From contig CBDURE010000013.1 in NCBI GenBank assembly GCA_965369605.1, positions 1-43,124 on the forward strand: a stretch of DNA of 43,124 nucleotides, in the 5' to 3' direction. Shown here in pieces: positions 58-19,168 of the stretch. How positions within the stretch are numbered: the first letter of the stretch is position 1; the number at the start of each line of letters is the position of its first letter. This DNA is from an uncultured bacterium (lineage in GTDB: Bacteria > JAJVIF01 > JAGGVT01). Under the pieces are notes generated by a model. It worked only from the letters and a program-made list of their open reading frames with translations. It made no database searches and was not told the origin of the DNA. The position numbers and the translations under genes are program-made.

Positions 58-89
58 TTTCCCGACATGCTCTTACGTTCGGGGCTCGG
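58..89. repeat. Left copy of 32-bp inverted repeat (tttcccgacatgctcttacgttcggggctcgg); partner at 7978-8009
   Basis: Reverse complement matches 7978-8009 with one mismatch (a/t); the pair brackets the three-gene lipoprotein array. Confidence 0.8.
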
Positions 90-311
90 TTTTCAAAAGC
101 AATCCCCAAAATAAATCTTTACAATTAAACGTGGTTTCGTAGTAACCCCAAAAGCGTTTTTCAGGATCAACGGATTATACGGTTGAAATAACCAGCTTAG
201 TTCAGTATAATTCGTTTTCCTAAAAGGGTTGTTTATCAGCAACATATCACTGCTTCAGAGCTTATTAAATAGCAACCATAACTCATTGTAATTTTCCACA
301 GGTGAATCAGT

Positions 312-3116: not shown

Positions 3117-5873
3117 ATGTGTAATTCACGATTTTGTTTTACATTGCTTGTGATTATCAGTTTGATACTTGTCATTGGCTGTTCAGGGGGGAGCAATCCT
3201 GTTGCTCCTATTGGAGCGCTGGATTCTCAGTCAGTAAGTTACAATTCATTTCCTGTTGGAGTGTCTGATTTGGATGCCGATGGGAATCCGCTGGCAGGAT
3301 ACGGGGCGCTGGGGTTGTTTGAAATACATCTGGATTGCGAATCGCTTACTGGTGATATCCAATCGCTGAGGAAAGCATCGCTGCCGGATGTCCTTGAGGT
3401 GGTTGATATCACGAATTTTCTTCAGGTTGCACCATGTACCGATTGTGCGAGAATCGGCGCGATTTCAGCGGATACCGATGGCAACATAGTTTTATCCATG
3501 GGAATAAAGCATCCGTTTGATGCCGGGAATCCGATGGAACCGATAAGCGGGAAAAATCGCGGCGACCTTCATATATTTAATGTCGAGGGATTGGTTGTAG
3601 TTGACAGCGATGTAACAGTGGATTTTGCGGGAATCAAGGAGCAGGTTGCTGATTTCGATATGATAAACGCGGATGGCTATTCGCCGTATCTGGATGATGC
3701 GCTGGATGGCATCTATCCAACAACCGCGACCATTCATCCGTATAAACTACATTTCGATGATTACTCAGCGGGTAATTTTGATGGCGGCAATCTGATGGGA
3801 TTTGAAAGCGTAACCGACCCGCCGCCGAGTGGGAATCTGGTTATGGCGATGGGATGCGATTATGATTATCAGGACTATATATTCAATCTCGCATCCGGCG
3901 AAACAATCAGATTTATGTTTGCGATTGGGTGCACTTACGCGGTAAGCGCAGATTCGAAATCGCAAAGATTCATGCCTGAATATCGCGTTCCGCAGCATCT
4001 GAAAAAAGCGGCGTGTGAAGTCGCTGTGCGAATTGTTGATAATCAGTTTGAGCCGGGGAATCCATTGAGCACTGCTGATCTGGCAATAGATGTCGTGGAT
4101 GTAAATCACGGTGTCGCGGCTGGCGATGCGCTTAACGAAATGGCTCATGACAGTTCAGTTAGCGGGATTTCGATTGAGATTCCGGGCGTTTTATTCGGCG
4201 TTACCGATGTAACGCTCACAAATACCGGCGGAACAGGTCATGATTCGACTGATCCGCTGACTTATGAAATCACAATCCAGAACGAGGCAGCAGCCGCCGG
4301 GAGCGGATACAGGGGACTTGTCAAGGTTCTTGACGCATATCCGTCCGGCTCGAATACCTTTTTGCCGCTGGGGGATTCCGATGGCATTGAGCGAGTCGAG
4401 CCAAATCAGAATCCGCTGGATGGGCTGTTCGCGATAGATGAATTTGCGACTTACCAGGTATTTTATATTGACGCGAGCGGGCTTTTCAATAATCCGCCGG
4501 TTGCCGACCTTCAGCCCGACCCGATTATTATTCATCAGGGCAATTCGGTTAATTTCGATGGCTCCGCATCGTATGATACTGACGGAACAATTATGCTTTA
4601 TGAATTCGATTTTGACTGAGATGGAATAGAAATCAATTTCGAAGCTGATGACATGAACGGGCATGGTACGCTACTTTCAGATCCCTACGATATTGTGGGA
4701 GATTTCACAGCGGGACTTCGAGTTACCGATGACCAGCTGGCTGTTGGCTATGATTCAGTTCCGGTTACAGTAAATGAACCTTCATCGTGTCCTGATGCGC
4801 CATACGCGGGATACACAATAACGCAGGATTTTATTGACAGCGACGGTGACTTTTTCCATTTCCAGATGATGACCGGATGGCACTGGAAAGCAGGCGTGAT
4901 CTTCGATTCCGATTTCCTTTCCAGCGGTGATGGCATTTGCATCTACTCGCAGGAAGTGGAAGAGGACGGCACATTCGGCGGTGAGTTGAGATACTATGAT
5001 CCGATGGGTGATGAGGGCTGGGGATTCACGGCGGTTGGACCTGACTATCCCGGCGAGCAGGGAGTTTGTGTCGATGTTGACAGCACGGATTTAGTTGCGT
5101 TTGTAACGCTTGGAGACAATTTCTATGAGGCGTTTGGTCCGCCGAGTGAATGGACTCTCAGTGATTATATTAACGAGAGCAATGATTATTTCACGGTTGT
5201 GGATCCTTATGTTGGGCAATCATCTGAAGTGGTTGTCAATGTTGGGACACGAATCAGGGCGATTGATATCGATGGCTATGATGATATCTGGGTGCTTGAT
5301 ATCGACAATGTAATGCACAGGTATGTGAAAGGTACATCTCCTTTGAGTTACACGGAGGATGTTACTCGTCAGTTTGACCTTGATATTGCCACAGGCGGAC
5401 TGTTCACCGGACAGGTTTATGAATTCGTGATTAATTTCCACAATGAGGCTTTCTTCATTCTCACTGATAATACTGCTAAATGTGATTTGTGGCGGTTTGA
5501 ATGTGATGGTGTTTATTACTCCAATATCAATGGCAACGCAAACCCGATGATAGAAGTGCTTGCTGAGGATTGCACCGGAAATGCGGATATAGTCATCGAC
5601 AATCTTGACGCCAGTGGAAATCACCTGACTGGCGCGCAGGATTCACAGATTGTAGTTGTCAGCGGATACAATCCAAGCAACAACTGGCATACGATTATGT
5701 CTCGCGTTGATTCAGAGCTTGACCAGAAACTAACGCATGATGAAAACTGGGATGCGAGCGGAATCCAGACAGCGTATATCGACCAGAGAACCAACGAACT
5801 CTGGGGCTGGCATCGCTCAAACTCTTCTGATTCATGGGCGGAGCGATGGACAGCGCCGTCACAATGGGAGTAA
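3117..5873 (+). pseudogene. Paralog of 312-3020 lipoprotein interrupted by one in-frame TGA (4617-4619) where the paralog has TGG (Trp); otherwise intact in a single frame
   Basis: ORFs 3117-4619 and 4653-5873 are in the same frame; DFD*DG here aligns to DYDWDG of the 312-3020 protein; lipobox VIG-C; could alternatively be a sequencing error. Confidence 0.65.
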
Positions 5874-5950: not shown

Positions 5951-6027
5951 GCGTATTAGTAATATAAATATCTGTTTGATATAATATCCTTACGTTCTTC
6001 ACAAATCATATATGGAGCGTGTTTGAC

Positions 6028-7923
6028 ATGCGCTGTTCAATATTGCTTTTATCTCTAATTATCTTTTTACTGTGTTTTGCGGGATGTTCGAGTTCATCAA
6101 AGAATCCGGCGCAGCCTGAAAGCCCAATGCTGCCCCAGGCTGGAGTTTCGGACGATGGCACCGCGCTTTTGTATCAGGGCACTTTCGAGATTGACCTTGA
6201 AACTCAAACAATAACGCAGTATGAAAACAGGGAAGCGTCCACCATTTATGATATAACGGGATTCCTGCCGGATAAGTGTCCGGGCGGATGTTTCCGATTT
6301 GCAATTGTTGGGGTTGTCGGCAATGTTTTGGAAATTGAACTAACGCTTGAAAACCCGCTTGCGATACAGGCTTACGATGCGAGAGTTCAATATCTTGATT
6401 TGTTCGGCAAGACGGTTTTAAATTCTGACAGTTATACTGACTTTCTTGGGACGCCAATAACCAAAGTTTATCCATTTACAGCGTTTGTAAAAGAGAATCC
6501 AGATAGAGCGTTTCCGGTAGGTCCGGGTGGAATTGACACCGAAACGATGTATCTGGATTTTCCTCCGGGCGCGCCATCCGCGGTTAATTACGCGGTAACA
6601 GCGCATCTTCCGGGGAATACGCCTGAGCCGTATGAGATAAGTGAAATGGCTCAGGCCGGCACGCTGACCGCAACGGGCGGAAGCGCGATTATCAGTTGCC
6701 TTGTGGATGACCATCAGGATAATATTTCCGGCGTTTACCTGGATGCGACGCCTTTCACAGGCGCGCCTGTATCGTTTGTTTTCAATGACCCGTTATGGGA
6801 AGTTGAAATCTCCAATACAGCTGGAGCATCCGAGGGATCATATTACCAACTGATTATGGCTTTAAGCCCAAACGGGCAGAATGTCAGCACTTATAATTAC
6901 GTGGAAATCACAGTGGATGACAGTGTTCAGTGGAAGAATATCCGGTTGAGAACAGATTCCGCAGCGAAAGATCTCGCGGTTAATCCTGATGGCAGTTTGT
7001 TGATTCTGTATGATGACGCTCAGGTGTGGAAATATAATGAAGGCGACTATTTTGGCCATGCTGCTGCTGATTACCTGTTTACGGCTGAAGTTAAACAATG
7101 GTCGGAGCTGACTCCACCGCCATCGCCGGTACTCGCAAATGCGTTTATTGATGTTTCCGATTCAGGGGATATTATGGCATCTAATGCTGATGGTTCAATA
7201 TGCGAATATCCTGTAGGTTATTATCCGACTCAGAGCTATGATTCTTTGGGAAATTTTCATGGAGAGAGTGGAGCGCATTGCACCGGTGGGCCGATTATTG
7301 ATGTGTTTTGCTTCAAATCCGGATCAGGCGGCTATAACCTTGACCACGTTATGCTCGCGCCGGGGAACAGTGGGGATCAGAGTAACATGTATCGCCAGTC
7401 GCATTATGGCTGGGGATGGATTCAGCAATACGGGCAGGAATGCCACGGCTCAGGTTATGACAAAATACGAAACATTGACGTTGCCGGCGTTGAATCTGCC
7501 AGTGTGAATGAATTCTGGGCTTTGGAGGATTCTCCTGATTATTACGGAGCCTTGTTTATTCAGGATGATTTTTTCTATTACCATTATGCAGATGCATATT
7601 TTGGCACAGGCTCTCAAACTGAGGATGATTCCTGCTGGTACAACGCAATCGATTTAACCGCCGATGAAGATGGCAATCTGTATGTTCTTGATCAGCTTAT
7701 TGACAACAGCGGTCGGGTTAAGGGATTCACCGGGGATGTGTCCGGGGGAACATCGCTTGGGCATTTCGATGTGCCGTCCCAAATAAACTCAACACCGTTA
7801 AGGATTGAAAGCAGTGATGTATCAGGAGTGAACGGTAATCTTGTTTTCATCCTGCATGGTGATTTCGCCACCGATGGCTGTTTTCTTAGTGTCTTTTTAC
7901 CTGCTGATATACCGTGGTCGTGA
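6028..7923 (+). CDS. Secreted lipoprotein, distant paralog of the 312/3117 family (shared N-terminal DIT.FL...C..C module, C-terminal beta-propeller-like repeats)
   Basis: Lipobox CFAG-CSSSS; ggag RBS 12 nt before ATG at 6028 (ORF track starts at GTG 6019); TGA stop. Confidence 0.7.
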   Translation: MRCSILLLSLIIFLLCFAGCSSSSKNPAQPESPMLPQAGVSDDGTALLYQGTFEIDLETQTITQYENREASTIYDITGFLPDKCPGGCFRFAIVGVVGNVLEIELTLENPLAIQAYDARVQYLDLFGKTVLNSDSYTDFLGTPITKVYPFTAFVKENPDRAFPVGPGGIDTETMYLDFPPGAPSAVNYAVTAHLPGNTPEPYEISEMAQAGTLTATGGSAIISCLVDDHQDNISGVYLDATPFTGAPVSFVFNDPLWEVEISNTAGASEGSYYQLIMALSPNGQNVSTYNYVEITVDDSVQWKNIRLRTDSAAKDLAVNPDGSLLILYDDAQVWKYNEGDYFGHAAADYLFTAEVKQWSELTPPPSPVLANAFIDVSDSGDIMASNADGSICEYPVGYYPTQSYDSLGNFHGESGAHCTGGPIIDVFCFKSGSGGYNLDHVMLAPGNSGDQSNMYRQSHYGWGWIQQYGQECHGSGYDKIRNIDVAGVESASVNEFWALEDSPDYYGALFIQDDFFYYHYADAYFGTGSQTEDDSCWYNAIDLTADEDGNLYVLDQLIDNSGRVKGFTGDVSGGTSLGHFDVPSQINSTPLRIESSDVSGVNGNLVFILHGDFATDGCFLSVFLPADIPWS

Positions 7924-7977
7924 ATTGATGGGAACGCTTTGATTGCACAACTGTTATAATAGTTAAACTTGATGCAT

Positions 7978-8009
7978 CCGAGCCCCGAACGTAAGAGCTT
8001 GTCGGGAAA
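7978..8009. repeat. Right copy of the 32-bp inverted repeat (partner 58-89)
   Basis: ccgagccccgaacgtaagagcttgtcgggaaa = reverse complement of 58-89 with 1 mismatch. Confidence 0.8.
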
Positions 8010-8031
8010 GGCAAGTAGAACCAGAAACATT

Positions 8032-8079
8032 GTCATTCCGACCATCCTCCTTGCTTCGCTCGTCGGATGTCGGAATGAC
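8032..8079. repeat. REP-like hairpin gtcattccgac...gtcggaatgac (family also at 19103-19138, 27409-27492, 30781-30980, 42791-42810, 42934-42958)
   Basis: 11-bp inverted arms read directly; same core gtcattcc/ggaatgac recurs in at least 5 other intergenic sites. Confidence 0.7.
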
Positions 8080-8135
8080 GTTTTTCTTGTTCTTCTGATC
8101 TTTCCCGGCTTGATGGTTCATCCGGGAATGTTGGT

Positions 8136-8543
8136 TTGGTAAATGCGGATGGCTATTCCGCATATCTTGACGATGTCCTTGATGAAATATATCCAACTGA
8201 TGCGACAGTGCATCCCTACATTTTGCATTTTGATGATTATTCAGTTGGCAATTATGATGTGTCAAATCCGATGGGATTTGAAAGTGTAACCAACCCGCCG
8301 CCGAGCGGTAATCTTGTAATGGCGATGGGATGCGATTATGACGTGCAGGATTATAAATTCAACATGGACAGCATTACGGATATCCGCGCAATGCCTGAAG
8401 TTGAAATCCCAGCCTGTCTTGGCGCTGGTCGCAGGTTCGCGCATAACCATGTCGATTTCAACGGCGATATGCATGTGGTTTACGAGGATGGCACACTGGG
8501 ACGATGGACGAATCTTGAGATTGGGTATGTGAAATATTATTAG
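8136..8543 (+). pseudogene. Truncated fragment of the lipoprotein family (only the central ~75 aa, ADGYS.YLDD...HFDDYS.GN.D..NPMGF.SVT.PPPSGNLVMAMGCDYD.QDY, is homologous), lying just outside the right inverted repeat
   Basis: About 80% nucleotide identity over about 230 bp to 3660-3890; no N-terminal signal or lipobox, 3' part unrelated. Confidence 0.6.
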
Positions 8544-8583
8544 GACGGTTGCGGTAAATTCATTCCGAGACAAGATAGACAAT

Positions 8584-8612
8584 GGACAGTTCATTGCGGA
8601 CTGTTCTTTTTT
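8584..8612 (+). terminator. Possible weak intrinsic terminator (7-bp stem, 9-nt loop, T7 run)
   Basis: ggacagt-tcattgcgg-actgttc-ttttttt. Confidence 0.35.
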
Positions 8613-9311
8613 TCAATAATCGCGCATCCAGTATGGATTGAGCATTCTGTGTATGGTGAATGTTTCGAGGGTATCCGGGATTTTCACCTTGCCAATCATG
8701 TCATCCGTTGCCATGACTCCGATGAAATCTATTCCTTCGTTTTTGGAAATCTCATAGGCGATTTTAATGCCGTTTTCAATCATGGATGGTGCTGTCTCGT
8801 CGAGCATGTGTGTGTTTGAAATAAGCCCGGTAACTTTCAATCCGCTGACCGATTCAACTCGCCTGAGTTCCCGAGTGCATTGTTCAGTATTGGCGTTGAA
8901 TGGCCTTGACGCGTTCAGGATATAAAAGAGATTATGTTTTCGCCCATGAAGATTTTTACTGATGCTTGCGAGAATTCTGGCACCGACAGCATCCCCGCCG
9001 ACATCGACAACCATCCAGTTGTCCGGATCGCTGATTATTCCATACATCGCGGAGGAAATTGAGGGCATGTCGCTGTGCGGTACGGATGAGATTACAACAT
9101 TGATGCCCTCATTTTTCAGCGCTTCGGCTGCCTCCTGGCTTCGGAAAAGCGGTTTGATTGTGTCTAAATCAACCAGTGTTACAGGCGTTTTTCCGCTGGC
9201 GTTAAGGCGTCGCGACCACGTGATTGCGAATTCACTTTTACCTGAGCCGTGCCCTCCGATTAGGATAGTCAGGCCTGTTTGGAAGGATTTTATGTATGCG
9301 TTTGGTGGCAA
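8613..9311 (-). CDS. P-loop NTPase of unknown family (232 aa), probably co-transcribed with the YchF-like gene
   Basis: Walker A GGHGSGKS near N-terminus followed by hydrophobic-D (LVDLD) Walker B-like strand; no further family assignment possible by eye. Confidence 0.5.
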   Translation of the reverse strand: MPPNAYIKSFQTGLTILIGGHGSGKSEFAITWSRRLNASGKTPVTLVDLDTIKPLFRSQEAAEALKNEGINVVISSVPHSDMPSISSAMYGIISDPDNWMVVDVGGDAVGARILASISKNLHGRKHNLFYILNASRPFNANTEQCTRELRRVESVSGLKVTGLISNTHMLDETAPSMIENGIKIAYEISKNEGIDFIGVMATDDMIGKVKIPDTLETFTIHRMLNPYWMRDY

Positions 9312-10514: not shown

Positions 10515-10590
10515 TTTTGTATTCTCCCAAACATATAATTATAACCGAGTCACTTAAAATTATCATTCGATAAAGCAGTTATTTGGGATG

Positions 10591-10742
10591 CCTCACCCCC
10601 CAGCCCCCTCTCCACCATGTGGAGATGGGGAGCAGGAAAACGCTATGCGGAGATGGGGAGCAGGGAAACGCTATGCGGAGAGTGAAGGGTAAGAGTAATC
10701 TTACTCCCTTCTCCTGATGCAGGAGAGGGGCTGGGGGTGAGG
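10591..10742. repeat. MITE-like element family 1: terminal inverted repeats cctcaccccc.gcccctctcc / ggagaggggctgggggtgagg enclosing about 110 bp that contains a 30-bp tandem duplication
   Basis: TIRs read directly; internal tandem repeat atggggagcagg(g)aaaacgctatgcggag x2; same TIRs at 16285-16384, 17940-17985, 39171-39305. Confidence 0.7.
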
Positions 10743-10918
10743 TTCTTTAAGCCAGATAAAAAGCGACAGTTCCCTTTTGGAGTATTCTCAGTTATTTCTG
10801 TTTTCACCGGACAGTAGTGATTTGCGAAATGAATCGATAAAATTGTATAATTTGCACGGTTGGAGGGACTTGCCTGAATAGGCGTTTTTTTGTTTTATTC
10901 ATAGGAGATTTACTGAAT

Positions 10919-13047: not shown

Positions 13048-14376
13048 ATGAAAAAAAATATATCGATTATTATCGTTTTGATTCTGGCAATATGCGCTCT
13101 GAGTTGCGGGAATGCCTTGGGAGATAAAGGCGATGACAAATCATCTGAAATGACAAGCGCAGTTGTCGAACGCAATTCGATAAAAGTGCAGGTGGAATCA
13201 ACCGGCAGGATAGTCTCAAACCTGGATGTCGAGATTAAATGCAAGGCGAGCGGTGAGGTTATCACTCTGCCATTTGATATAAGTGATGAGGTTAAGAAAG
13301 GTGATCTGGTCGCTGAATTGGATCCTGTCGATGAGGAGCGCAATGTTCAGAAAGCGAATGTTACTCTTTCATCATCACTTGCACGACTTGCGAAAGCCAA
13401 ACTGAATCTTACAATCGCGCAGGATGATCTTGCAAATGCGCAGGCGCGAGCTGAGGTTGATCATGATACCGCGGTTACTCGCGAGCGGGATACGCTGGCA
13501 AAAGCTGACAGAGTGAAACAGCTTTACGAGCAGAAGCTGGCGAGCCAGGAGGAATACGAAACCGCTGAAACCGCTGCGCAAAAAGCGGAAGCTGATTTAA
13601 CCAATGCCACGATTAGATTAGAGGAACTGAAAACAGATAAAGCCGCGCTGGAATTGAAACGTCAGGATTTGAGCCTGGCTGAATCGGATGTTGAATCCGC
13701 GCGGATTAATCTTTCCACTATTGAACAGAGATTGAAAGACACGAAAGTTTACGCTCCCATTGATGGCATTGTTACTGACAGGCCGGTTCAGATTGGCCAG
13801 ATTATCTCGTCAGGTATCAGCAATGTCGGTGGCGGAACCACGATTCTGACATTGTCTGATTTATCGCGACTGTTCGTGCTGGCATACGTTGATGAAAGCG
13901 ATATAGGCAGAATCGAACAGGGGCAGACTGTGAATGTTTCCGCTGATGCCTTTATTGGAAAGCAGTTCAAAGGCGTTGTGGATCGAATCGCGCAAAAAGG
14001 CATTAATCAATCAAATGTAATTACATTCGAAGTCAGAATCGAACTGCTAAGTAAAAATAAATCTCTCTTGAAACCTGAAATGACAGCGGATGTGGAAATT
14101 TTAATGGCTGAAGCTAATGATGCACTCACGATTCCTTTGGGCGCTGTATCCAGAGAAGAGGGAATGCCGTCAGTGTCAGTAATCATGGATGATGGCAGTG
14201 TGGAAATCCGAAATGTTGAGGTGGGAATAACAGATGGTGAGATTATTGAAATCGTTAAAGGTTTGCAGGAGGGCGAAACGGTAGCAATAAATGAGATGGA
14301 GTACGAAAGCGCATGGCGCAAGCGATTAGAAGAACGAAACAGGAGCAGACCTTCGGGAGGATTGGGTCGCCACTGA
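13048..14376 (+). CDS. Efflux periplasmic adaptor lipoprotein (HlyD/MacA family)
   Basis: Lipobox ALS-C; long coiled-coil region then beta-barrel-like C-terminus; stop overlaps ATG of next gene (TGATG). Confidence 0.75.
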   Translation: MKKNISIIIVLILAICALSCGNALGDKGDDKSSEMTSAVVERNSIKVQVESTGRIVSNLDVEIKCKASGEVITLPFDISDEVKKGDLVAELDPVDEERNVQKANVTLSSSLARLAKAKLNLTIAQDDLANAQARAEVDHDTAVTRERDTLAKADRVKQLYEQKLASQEEYETAETAAQKAEADLTNATIRLEELKTDKAALELKRQDLSLAESDVESARINLSTIEQRLKDTKVYAPIDGIVTDRPVQIGQIISSGISNVGGGTTILTLSDLSRLFVLAYVDESDIGRIEQGQTVNVSADAFIGKQFKGVVDRIAQKGINQSNVITFEVRIELLSKNKSLLKPEMTADVEILMAEANDALTIPLGAVSREEGMPSVSVIMDDGSVEIRNVEVGITDGEIIEIVKGLQEGETVAINEMEYESAWRKRLEERNRSRPSGGLGRH

Positions 14377-18956: not shown

Positions 18957-19168
18957 GATTCCTCCGAAAAGATCAAGGCTTGGTTAATTACGGACTCATT
19001 TTACCGATTGCATGAGAAAAGCACAAATGGAAGTTTTGTAAAAGCAAGTAGTATGGTTTCTTGTGAAGTTGTCTCAAAACCTCTAAATAGCAGGAAAAAC
19101 GCCATTCCGACCTTTCGCTTCGCGAATGTCGGAATGACGAACTATTTATATTCTGAGACAGTTTTGCA

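Follow-up and report, generated by a model that had tools for sequence, protein, structure and literature searches.

The window analysed here, the whole 43,124-nt stretch of DNA, carries an array of lipoprotein genes (genes 1 to 3) followed on the same strand by the short ORF that is the subject of this study (Table 1). The ORF begins 126 bp past the right arm of a 33-nt inverted repeat, and between it and gene 3 lies a long REP-like hairpin with a T-run after it (8030-8095). Gene callers list it either as P0246 (135 aa) or as P0001 (90 aa). The ORF has no Pfam domain, and PKD is the sole Pfam match of genes 1 and 2. Scanning the window for Rfam families and tRNAs returned no matches.

Table 1. 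Coordinates of features in the window that bear on the ORF at 8136-8543
Feature	Coordinates	Strand	Remarks
33-nt inverted repeat	57-89 and 7978-8010		one mismatch between the arms
Gene 1, N-domain	312-1700
Gene 2	3117-5873
In-frame TGA in gene 2	4617-4619
Gene 3	6019-7923		upstream neighbour of the relic ORF
Context element	7978-8080		right repeat arm (7978-8010) and REP-like hairpin (8030-8080); dispersed, not an array boundary
TGA closing the frame upstream of the ORF	8073-8075	+
Left deletion junction	8091-8123	+	some weak in-frame similarity may persist before homology stops; neither start context nor RBS, lipobox or promoter evident
N-domain segment	8124-8366	+	parent residues ~176-256 (parent ~900-930 aa); in frame; all family-invariant residues kept
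Relic ORF	8136-8543	+	135 codons, TTG start; between gene 3 and the convergent 232-aa gene
Codon 40	8253-8255	+	TAT (Tyr) in the window; TAG in L001 and L002, same species
C-terminal segment	8367-8543	+	parent's last 58 codons and stop; final blade of the C-terminal beta-propeller; fused in frame
Intrinsic-terminator-like hairpin and T-run	8584-8612 (hairpin 8584-8606)	+	terminator scan; inherited from the parent gene
232-aa CbiA/ParA-like (ATPase-like) gene	8613-9311	-	convergent with the relic ORF
Palindromic G/C-rich repeat	10583-10742		28-nt tandem pair at 10617-10672
REP-like hairpin, further copy	19104-19140

A blastn search with positions 8001-8700 against the window aligned 8137-8362 with gene 2 (3661-3886) over 226 bp without gaps at 77.9% nucleotide identity (E 1.8e-48), and 8211-8354 with gene 1 (915-1058) at 80.6%. 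A repeat search recovered the same two matches as repeat families D1 and D2. Over its first 77-86 residues the translation of the ORF (LVNADGYSAYLDD...NPPPSGNLVMAMGCDYD) is 74% identical to the product of gene 2 and 67.5% identical to that of gene 1, a likeness to the family that is far above chance. When the frame is read upstream, family homology stops at ~8124 (GNVGLVNADGYS) and the frame runs into the TGA at 8073-8075, with no signal peptide and no N-terminal domain along the way. In these respects our results bear out a preliminary description of the locus, which had put the match to the centre of gene 2 at about 80%, quoted the same translation, remarked on the missing signal peptide and N-terminal domain and placed the fragment some 130 bp beyond the right inverted repeat in the orientation of the array.

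The lipoprotein array and its intergenic repeats

Genes 1 and 2 share a common plan: a conserved N-terminal domain of ~430 amino acids (the N-domain), a PKD domain and a variable C-terminal propeller or beta-helix. In a family alignment (A2), the gene 1 N-domain is highly conserved in hundreds of proteins from unclassified metagenome-assembled genomes, with C104, C107, H129, H149, E154, H202, H207 and H289 as invariant residues, and it is found fused to PKD and to diverse C-terminal modules, among them PQQ or Kelch propellers, NosD-type beta-helices and BNR modules. The N-domain has no match in Pfam and no sequence match in the PDB. A Foldseek search with an AF2 model of gene 1 (pLDDT 76, falling below 50 across residues 189-236) returned generic beta-propellers only, all of them from the C-terminal domain, and nothing for the N-domain. 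Gene 2 contains an in-frame TGA at a position occupied by Trp in gene 1 and in the family consensus ('YEFD(F/Y)DWDG'), a single change of TGG to TGA. Gene 2 may be a nonsense pseudogene or depend on read-through, or the base may be a sequencing error.

In three related loci (L003, L004 and L007), a 555-aa recJ gene and a repeat-rich spacer of ~360 nt lie directly upstream of gene 1. Both are absent from the window, and no recJ homologue is found anywhere in the 43-kb contig. Comparison of window 72-147 with L003 7783-9835 marks the site of the missing gene: positions 1-91 of the window match the region upstream of recJ, and from 148 onward the window matches the gene 1 leader.

We considered whether the 33-nt inverted repeat bounds a mobile or invertible array and rejected this, its arms being copies of a dispersed intergenic element. 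In L007, a copy comes after the stop codon of each of genes 3 and 4, and the spacer between those genes has the element in both orientations around its REP-like hairpin (10781-10795, 13606-13620 and 13882-13896); in L003 and L004 the element is found upstream of recJ (in L003 at 7492-7549 and 7714-7782). The relatives' copies of the element carry a hairpin of ~50 nt inserted at their middle. In the window, it is merely the absence of recJ that makes the pair of arms look like an array boundary. The window has the REP-like hairpin ('CGTCATTCCGAC...GTCGGAATGACG') in two or more intergenic regions, and the L007 version has a larger loop. Another intergenic repeat, palindromic and G/C-rich ('CCCCAGCCCCCTCTCC...GGAGAGGGGCTGGGGG'), lies between ychF and a proline dehydrogenase gene and resembles a dispersed repeat.

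Two-part homology to full-length family members

The preliminary description held that the sequence downstream of the family match was unrelated to it. This is wrong: codons 78-135 are homologous to the C-terminus of full-length family members. They align without gaps with residues 875-932 of the 932-aa protein P0103 at 60% identity (blastp E 4e-20 among the compared proteins and 1.8e-20 pairwise) and with the extreme C-terminus of P0077, residues 865-926 of 926 (33/64 identical, E 2e-16; 52% over 869-926). The N-domain segment matches the same two proteins, with 80.7% identity to residues 178-260 of P0103 and 63/86 (73%, E 4e-44) to residues 176-261 of P0077. The nearest of the compared proteins to this segment is P0088 (82-84%), to which it is 84% identical over residues 176-256 by tblastn and 82% identical over 77 residues by blastp, with 79.9% nucleotide identity to L007 13018-12775. 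Towards the 5' side, tblastn similarity to P0077, gene 2 and gene 1 reaches weakly to 8091-8109.

The same two-part relationship is seen in nucleotide comparisons. Positions 8125-8341 and 8454-8543 both match the P0103 gene at ~76% identity; the final 90 bp of the ORF are 75.6% identical to the final 90 bp of that gene, and the matching piece of the P0103 gene ends at its stop codon. Between the two matching pieces lie 1.96 kb in the P0103 gene, as against 113 bp in the window.

A word-indexed protein search with the 135-aa ORF returned only its own 90-aa version, and the homology of the tail surfaced with an exhaustive phmmer search of 1.84 billion representatives. In this search, ~90 family members match residues 1-80, and the full-length members P0077 and P0103 match the ORF in two stretches. 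Residues ~100-134 are matched seven or more times by repeat proteins such as P0206 (7-fold), and comparison of a P0206 blade ('VDNNGNIHVVWEDYTNGEWGTDSEIMYANY') with the corresponding stretch of the ORF ('VDFNGDMHVVYEDGTLGRW-TNLEIGYVKY') identifies a beta-propeller blade motif. No other protein among the 1.84 billion representatives shares the mini-architecture of the ORF. Weak tblastn matches of the tail to a 667-aa gene in L004 fall in two frames (E ~2), and we dismissed them as chance.

Measured against such full-length proteins, the ORF has lost ~614 codons (~1.84 kb) internally and ~175 codons at its 5' end, the latter together with the promoter and the lipobox. The internal junction falls at ~8367-8373, where 'DYKFNM' is joined to 'DSITDI'. 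With P0103 taken as a proxy for the parent, similar short strings stand on the two sides of the junction ('AAT ATT AAC AGC GAT' and 'GAT AAC ATA TCA GAT'), which would be compatible with a microhomology-mediated deletion. Both the deletion endpoints and the microhomology are read by proxy, since the best full-length models are just 60-84% identical to the ORF in amino acid sequence. The true parent allele was not recovered, a scan of metagenome contigs with the tail yielding distant blade matches only (L012 and L013).

What the ORF retains can be set against what a functional lipoprotein of this family contains, namely the lipobox cysteine C22 and a complete N-domain running from G58 to T440. 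Only residues ~176-256 are present, and the invariant residues C22, C104, C107, H129, H149 and H289, amongst others, fall outside the fragment. A consensus scan of the + strand from 7924 to 8136 found no sigma-70-like promoter, and consensus-level inspection found no SD-like sequence before either the TTG at 8136 or an ATG at 8271.

The ORF is also present in two other metagenomes, in contigs L001 (corresponding to window 8094-8800) and L002 (8203-8783), with the same junctions and 99.86% identity. In both of these a T to G change at 8255 turns codon 40 into a stop, the L001 translation reading '...SVGN', stop, 'DVSNP...'. As a result, the gene caller gives only the 90-aa P0001 there, from Met46. 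The TAG allele shows that translation of the 135-aa product is not selected for. The window allele has no disabling mutation: its 139 in-frame codons are intact and, within the region covered, all family-invariant residues are kept. The dN/dS ratio between the fragment and gene 4 of L007 is 0.06 (dS 1.46) which, together with the retention of the invariant residues, implies that the divergence accrued before truncation and that the deletions are recent. L002 departs fully from the window after 8783, inside the 232-aa gene (L002 582-700, coverage 1.17), and may there be a chimeric low-coverage assembly or a structural variant.

Slot 4 in related genomes

Homologues of the 232-aa neighbour led us to related loci, all of them reversed relative to the window, in which the position between gene 3 and this neighbour (slot 4) can be compared. 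A genome-contig scan with the neighbour gave no matches. In L007, whose neighbour is 88% identical in amino acid sequence, the order is recJ, gene 1 (903 aa), gene 3 (629 aa), an intact gene for the 898-aa P0088, the 232-aa gene and ychF. In L009, which has the most similar neighbour found (91%), the slot is filled by an intact family member whose C-terminal domain is of the blade-repeat type; the contig ends within this gene, leaving more than 583 aa of it. In L004, L005 and L006 (neighbour 90%) the slot-4 gene is absent and an additional gene-3-like paralogue is present instead. The arrays of L003, L004 and L007 have no counterpart of gene 2. No array is found at this position in the more distant L010 and L011, which are not syntenic and so provide no outgroup for the slot, and the P0103 locus (L014) shows no synteny with the window.

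Alignment of window 7900-8400 with the spacer between genes 3 and 4 of L007 shows that the first part of the spacer, comprising the repeat arm and the REP-like hairpin, is kept in the window and that ~860 bp are missing, made up of the rest of the spacer and the first ~175 codons of gene 4. At the other end, window 8508-8610, which takes in the final 36 nt of the ORF together with the terminator-like hairpin, matches at 93% identity L009 6164-6062, just downstream of the intact slot-4 gene of that locus.

The relatives' slot-4 genes have histories of their own. Comparison of the window with L009 reveals a sharp recombination breakpoint at 8507/8508 (L009 6164/6165), with 93-95% identity downstream and no nucleotide similarity upstream, indicating that the gene body in the slot was exchanged in one lineage. 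The intact gene of L009 has its own stop codon 20 nt before the breakpoint, and behind it lies an out-of-frame remnant of an older 3' end ('TNLEIAYVKYH' followed by a stop). P0088 (L007 10847-13543) is a chimera of an N-domain of the gene 1/2 type and a C-terminus of the gene 3 type: its last 350 residues share 54% identity with the C-terminal half of gene 3 (window 6880-7917), and its gene is 72% identical to the window over 7573-7995, including shared sequence just past the stop, and 86% identical over 6910-7079. The make-up of P0088 indicates that the array's two lipoprotein families have exchanged domains. Moreover, dS between the fragment and L007 gene 4 is 1.46, as against 0.44 for the gene 1 orthologues of the same pair of genomes, so that 'positional orthologue' is an oversimplification. 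On the basis of these comparisons, slot 4 has evidently seen gene replacement.

Origin of the ORF

The preliminary description saw in this layout a possible silent donor cassette for antigenic variation, that is, a promoterless archive copied by segmental gene conversion into the centre of gene 1 or gene 2 so as to vary a surface antigen. Neisseria pilS and the Anaplasma msp2 donor pseudogenes are gene-conversion antigenic-variation loci comparable with the vls locus of Borrelia. The likeness to vls is real up to a point: the fragment is a promoterless, 5'-truncated central copy of a surface-lipoprotein gene, it adjoins full-length paralogues on the same strand, an inverted repeat lies nearby, and the fragment's frame is unbroken in the window strain. 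The array, too, is clearly recombinogenic, with gene content that differs among close relatives and the breakpoint at 8507/8508. The lack of a promoter and 5' end is, however, a feature shared with any 5'-truncated pseudogene. The vls locus consists of contiguous arrays, with 15 silent cassettes in strain B31 that are ~90% identical to the cassette region of vlsE and whose differences are concentrated in variable regions (PMC11499132). By contrast, tblastn searches with genes 1, 2 and 3, P0077 and P0088 found one fragment of the family, besides the full-length genes, in the 43-kb window. In codon alignments it is 75.8% identical to gene 2 at the nucleotide level (57% at third positions, dS 1.55) and 66% identical to gene 1 (49%, dS 2.07), so that synonymous sites are saturated against both; gene 1 orthologues between these genomes are 90-93% identical (dS 0.29-0.44), and those of L003, L004 and L007 are no nearer to the fragment (64-65%). 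Uninterrupted identity extends over at most 23 nt with gene 2 and 14 nt with gene 1.

A search for conversion tracts across the paralogues, which the preliminary description had proposed, was carried out as a Sawyer-type permutation test of runs of concordant polymorphic sites in consensus assemblies and found no tract (P=0.37 for gene 2 and P=0.49 for gene 1). In a family alignment of 50 sequences, the 77-aa window equivalent to the fragment ranks 19th of 350 for lowest entropy in the N-domain, and a fragment covering so conserved a region would donate hardly any diversity. Nor does a cassette account for the 3' half of the ORF, which is its parent's own last blade, stop and terminator; genes 1 and 2 end otherwise. 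Gene 2, the nearer candidate recipient, has its in-frame TGA. The repeat arms are dispersed elements, and the source is an environmental uncultured bacterium without known host immune pressure. It had been suggested that the absence of mosaicism and an accumulation of frameshifts and stops would tell against a cassette. The TAG in L001 and L002 and the lack of conversion tracts go in that direction, whereas the window allele has no stops; and as stop codons do occur in vls silent cassettes (PMC11499132), the TAG by itself is compatible with a donor role. On balance we regard a silent cassette as highly unlikely.

The alternative offered at the time, a decaying duplicate, comes nearer to the mark, in that the ORF is a remnant with a nonsense allele in two other strains. 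Its parent, though, does not appear to be gene 2. A partial copy of the centre of gene 2 placed here would fit the ungapped match between the two and a shared sub-type ('NADGYS.YLD..LD.IYPT') that is like gene 2 and unlike gene 1. Against this, L007 gene 4 (82-84% in amino acid sequence) and P0103 (81%) are nearer to the fragment than gene 2 is (74%), dS to gene 2 is saturated at 1.55, and the propeller-type tail is foreign to gene 2, which ends '...WTAPSQWE' like gene 1. Related arrays also lack gene 2 whilst possessing a slot-4 gene. Descent from gene 2 is, to our minds, just as improbable as a donor cassette. We see even less reason to believe in a co-opted small cytoplasmic protein of 135 aa (from the TTG at 8136) or 90 aa (from the ATG at 8271). 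In the window the ORF is unbroken and has a terminator behind it, gene callers annotate it, and the 90-aa version is unaffected by the TAG polymorphism; yet such a protein would contain no complete domain, merely a few strands of a ~430-aa domain and a single blade of a multi-blade propeller, without a Pfam match. Neither start is preceded by an SD-like or promoter-like site, and the architecture is without a homologue in the phmmer search. As for a chimeric collapse of reads from different paralogues, the family has multiple copies and the contigs are metagenomic, but three independent assemblies from different samples (the window, L001 and L002) have both junctions in common at 99.86% identity, and an assembly artefact is scarcely conceivable.

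A further possibility concerns the slot rather than the ORF. The position beside the 232-aa gene might be a recombination hotspot at which family members are swapped, with the relic kept as a homology anchor or donor. The contents of the slot do vary, from a chimera with a gene-3-type C-terminus in L007, through a propeller type in L009 with its breakpoint 36 nt before the old stop, to an empty slot in L004. We consider this very unlikely. Were it true, it would mean slow, population-level shuffling of surface lipoproteins in an uncultured environmental lineage and not programmed antigenic variation.

The ORF at 8136-8543 is very probably a non-functional deletion relic of a fourth full-length lipoprotein paralogue, in other words an ordinary pseudogene. 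Each half is homologous to a part of the same single proteins (P0103 178-260 and 875-932; P0077 176-261 and 865-926) and essential parts are missing; intact genes occupy the syntenic position in L007 (898 aa) and L009 (>583 aa); a nonsense polymorphism segregates, carried by L001 and L002 and not by the window; and no conversion tracts were found. The intact frame of the window allele, with all its invariant residues, points the other way, as it would be expected under selection too. We infer both the order and the mechanism of the deletions. The parent would have been a family member of ~930 aa that once lay between gene 3 and the convergent 232-aa gene. A 5' deletion would have taken the remainder of the spacer, the promoter, the RBS, the lipoprotein signal peptide and the first ~175 codons, and an in-frame internal deletion (~1.84 kb, ~614 codons), probably at a short microhomology, would have joined N-domain residue ~256 to the last 58 codons. 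This would leave 81 codons from the best-conserved part of the N-domain, together with the final propeller blade and the original stop and terminator. With no means of secretion and no complete domain, the relic is presumably not expressed to any purpose and drifts neutrally.

In most respects, the relic resembles other deletion pseudogenes: it is homologous to intact genes, is without a promoter, a start, a signal peptide and the greater part of the coding sequence, has intact counterparts in the same slot of relatives and a segregating nonsense allele, and retains its stop and terminator. It differs in that its internal deletion is in frame, so that a 135-codon ORF survives and is annotated, and in that the remaining piece is still pristine, with all invariant residues, which marks the event as recent. 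Its kinship with the family of genes 1 and 2 is plain from both parts, the 81 codons being 73-84% identical in amino acid sequence to the N-domain core (P0103, P0077 and P0088) and the 58 codons 52-60% identical to the C-terminal blade (P0103 and P0077); unlike the members of that family, it has no lipobox or PKD domain, is missing ~80% of the N-domain and keeps a single blade.

It follows for current databases that P0246 and P0001, public records of a 'hypothetical protein', are gene debris and are due a pseudogene flag, and that the locus is not to be counted as a candidate for antigenic variation. Judging from the sequences compared here, the lipoprotein array turns over quickly among close relatives, through gene gain and loss, chimerisation, nonsense mutation and deletion, a pattern typical of surface proteins under diversifying pressure in environmental bacteria.
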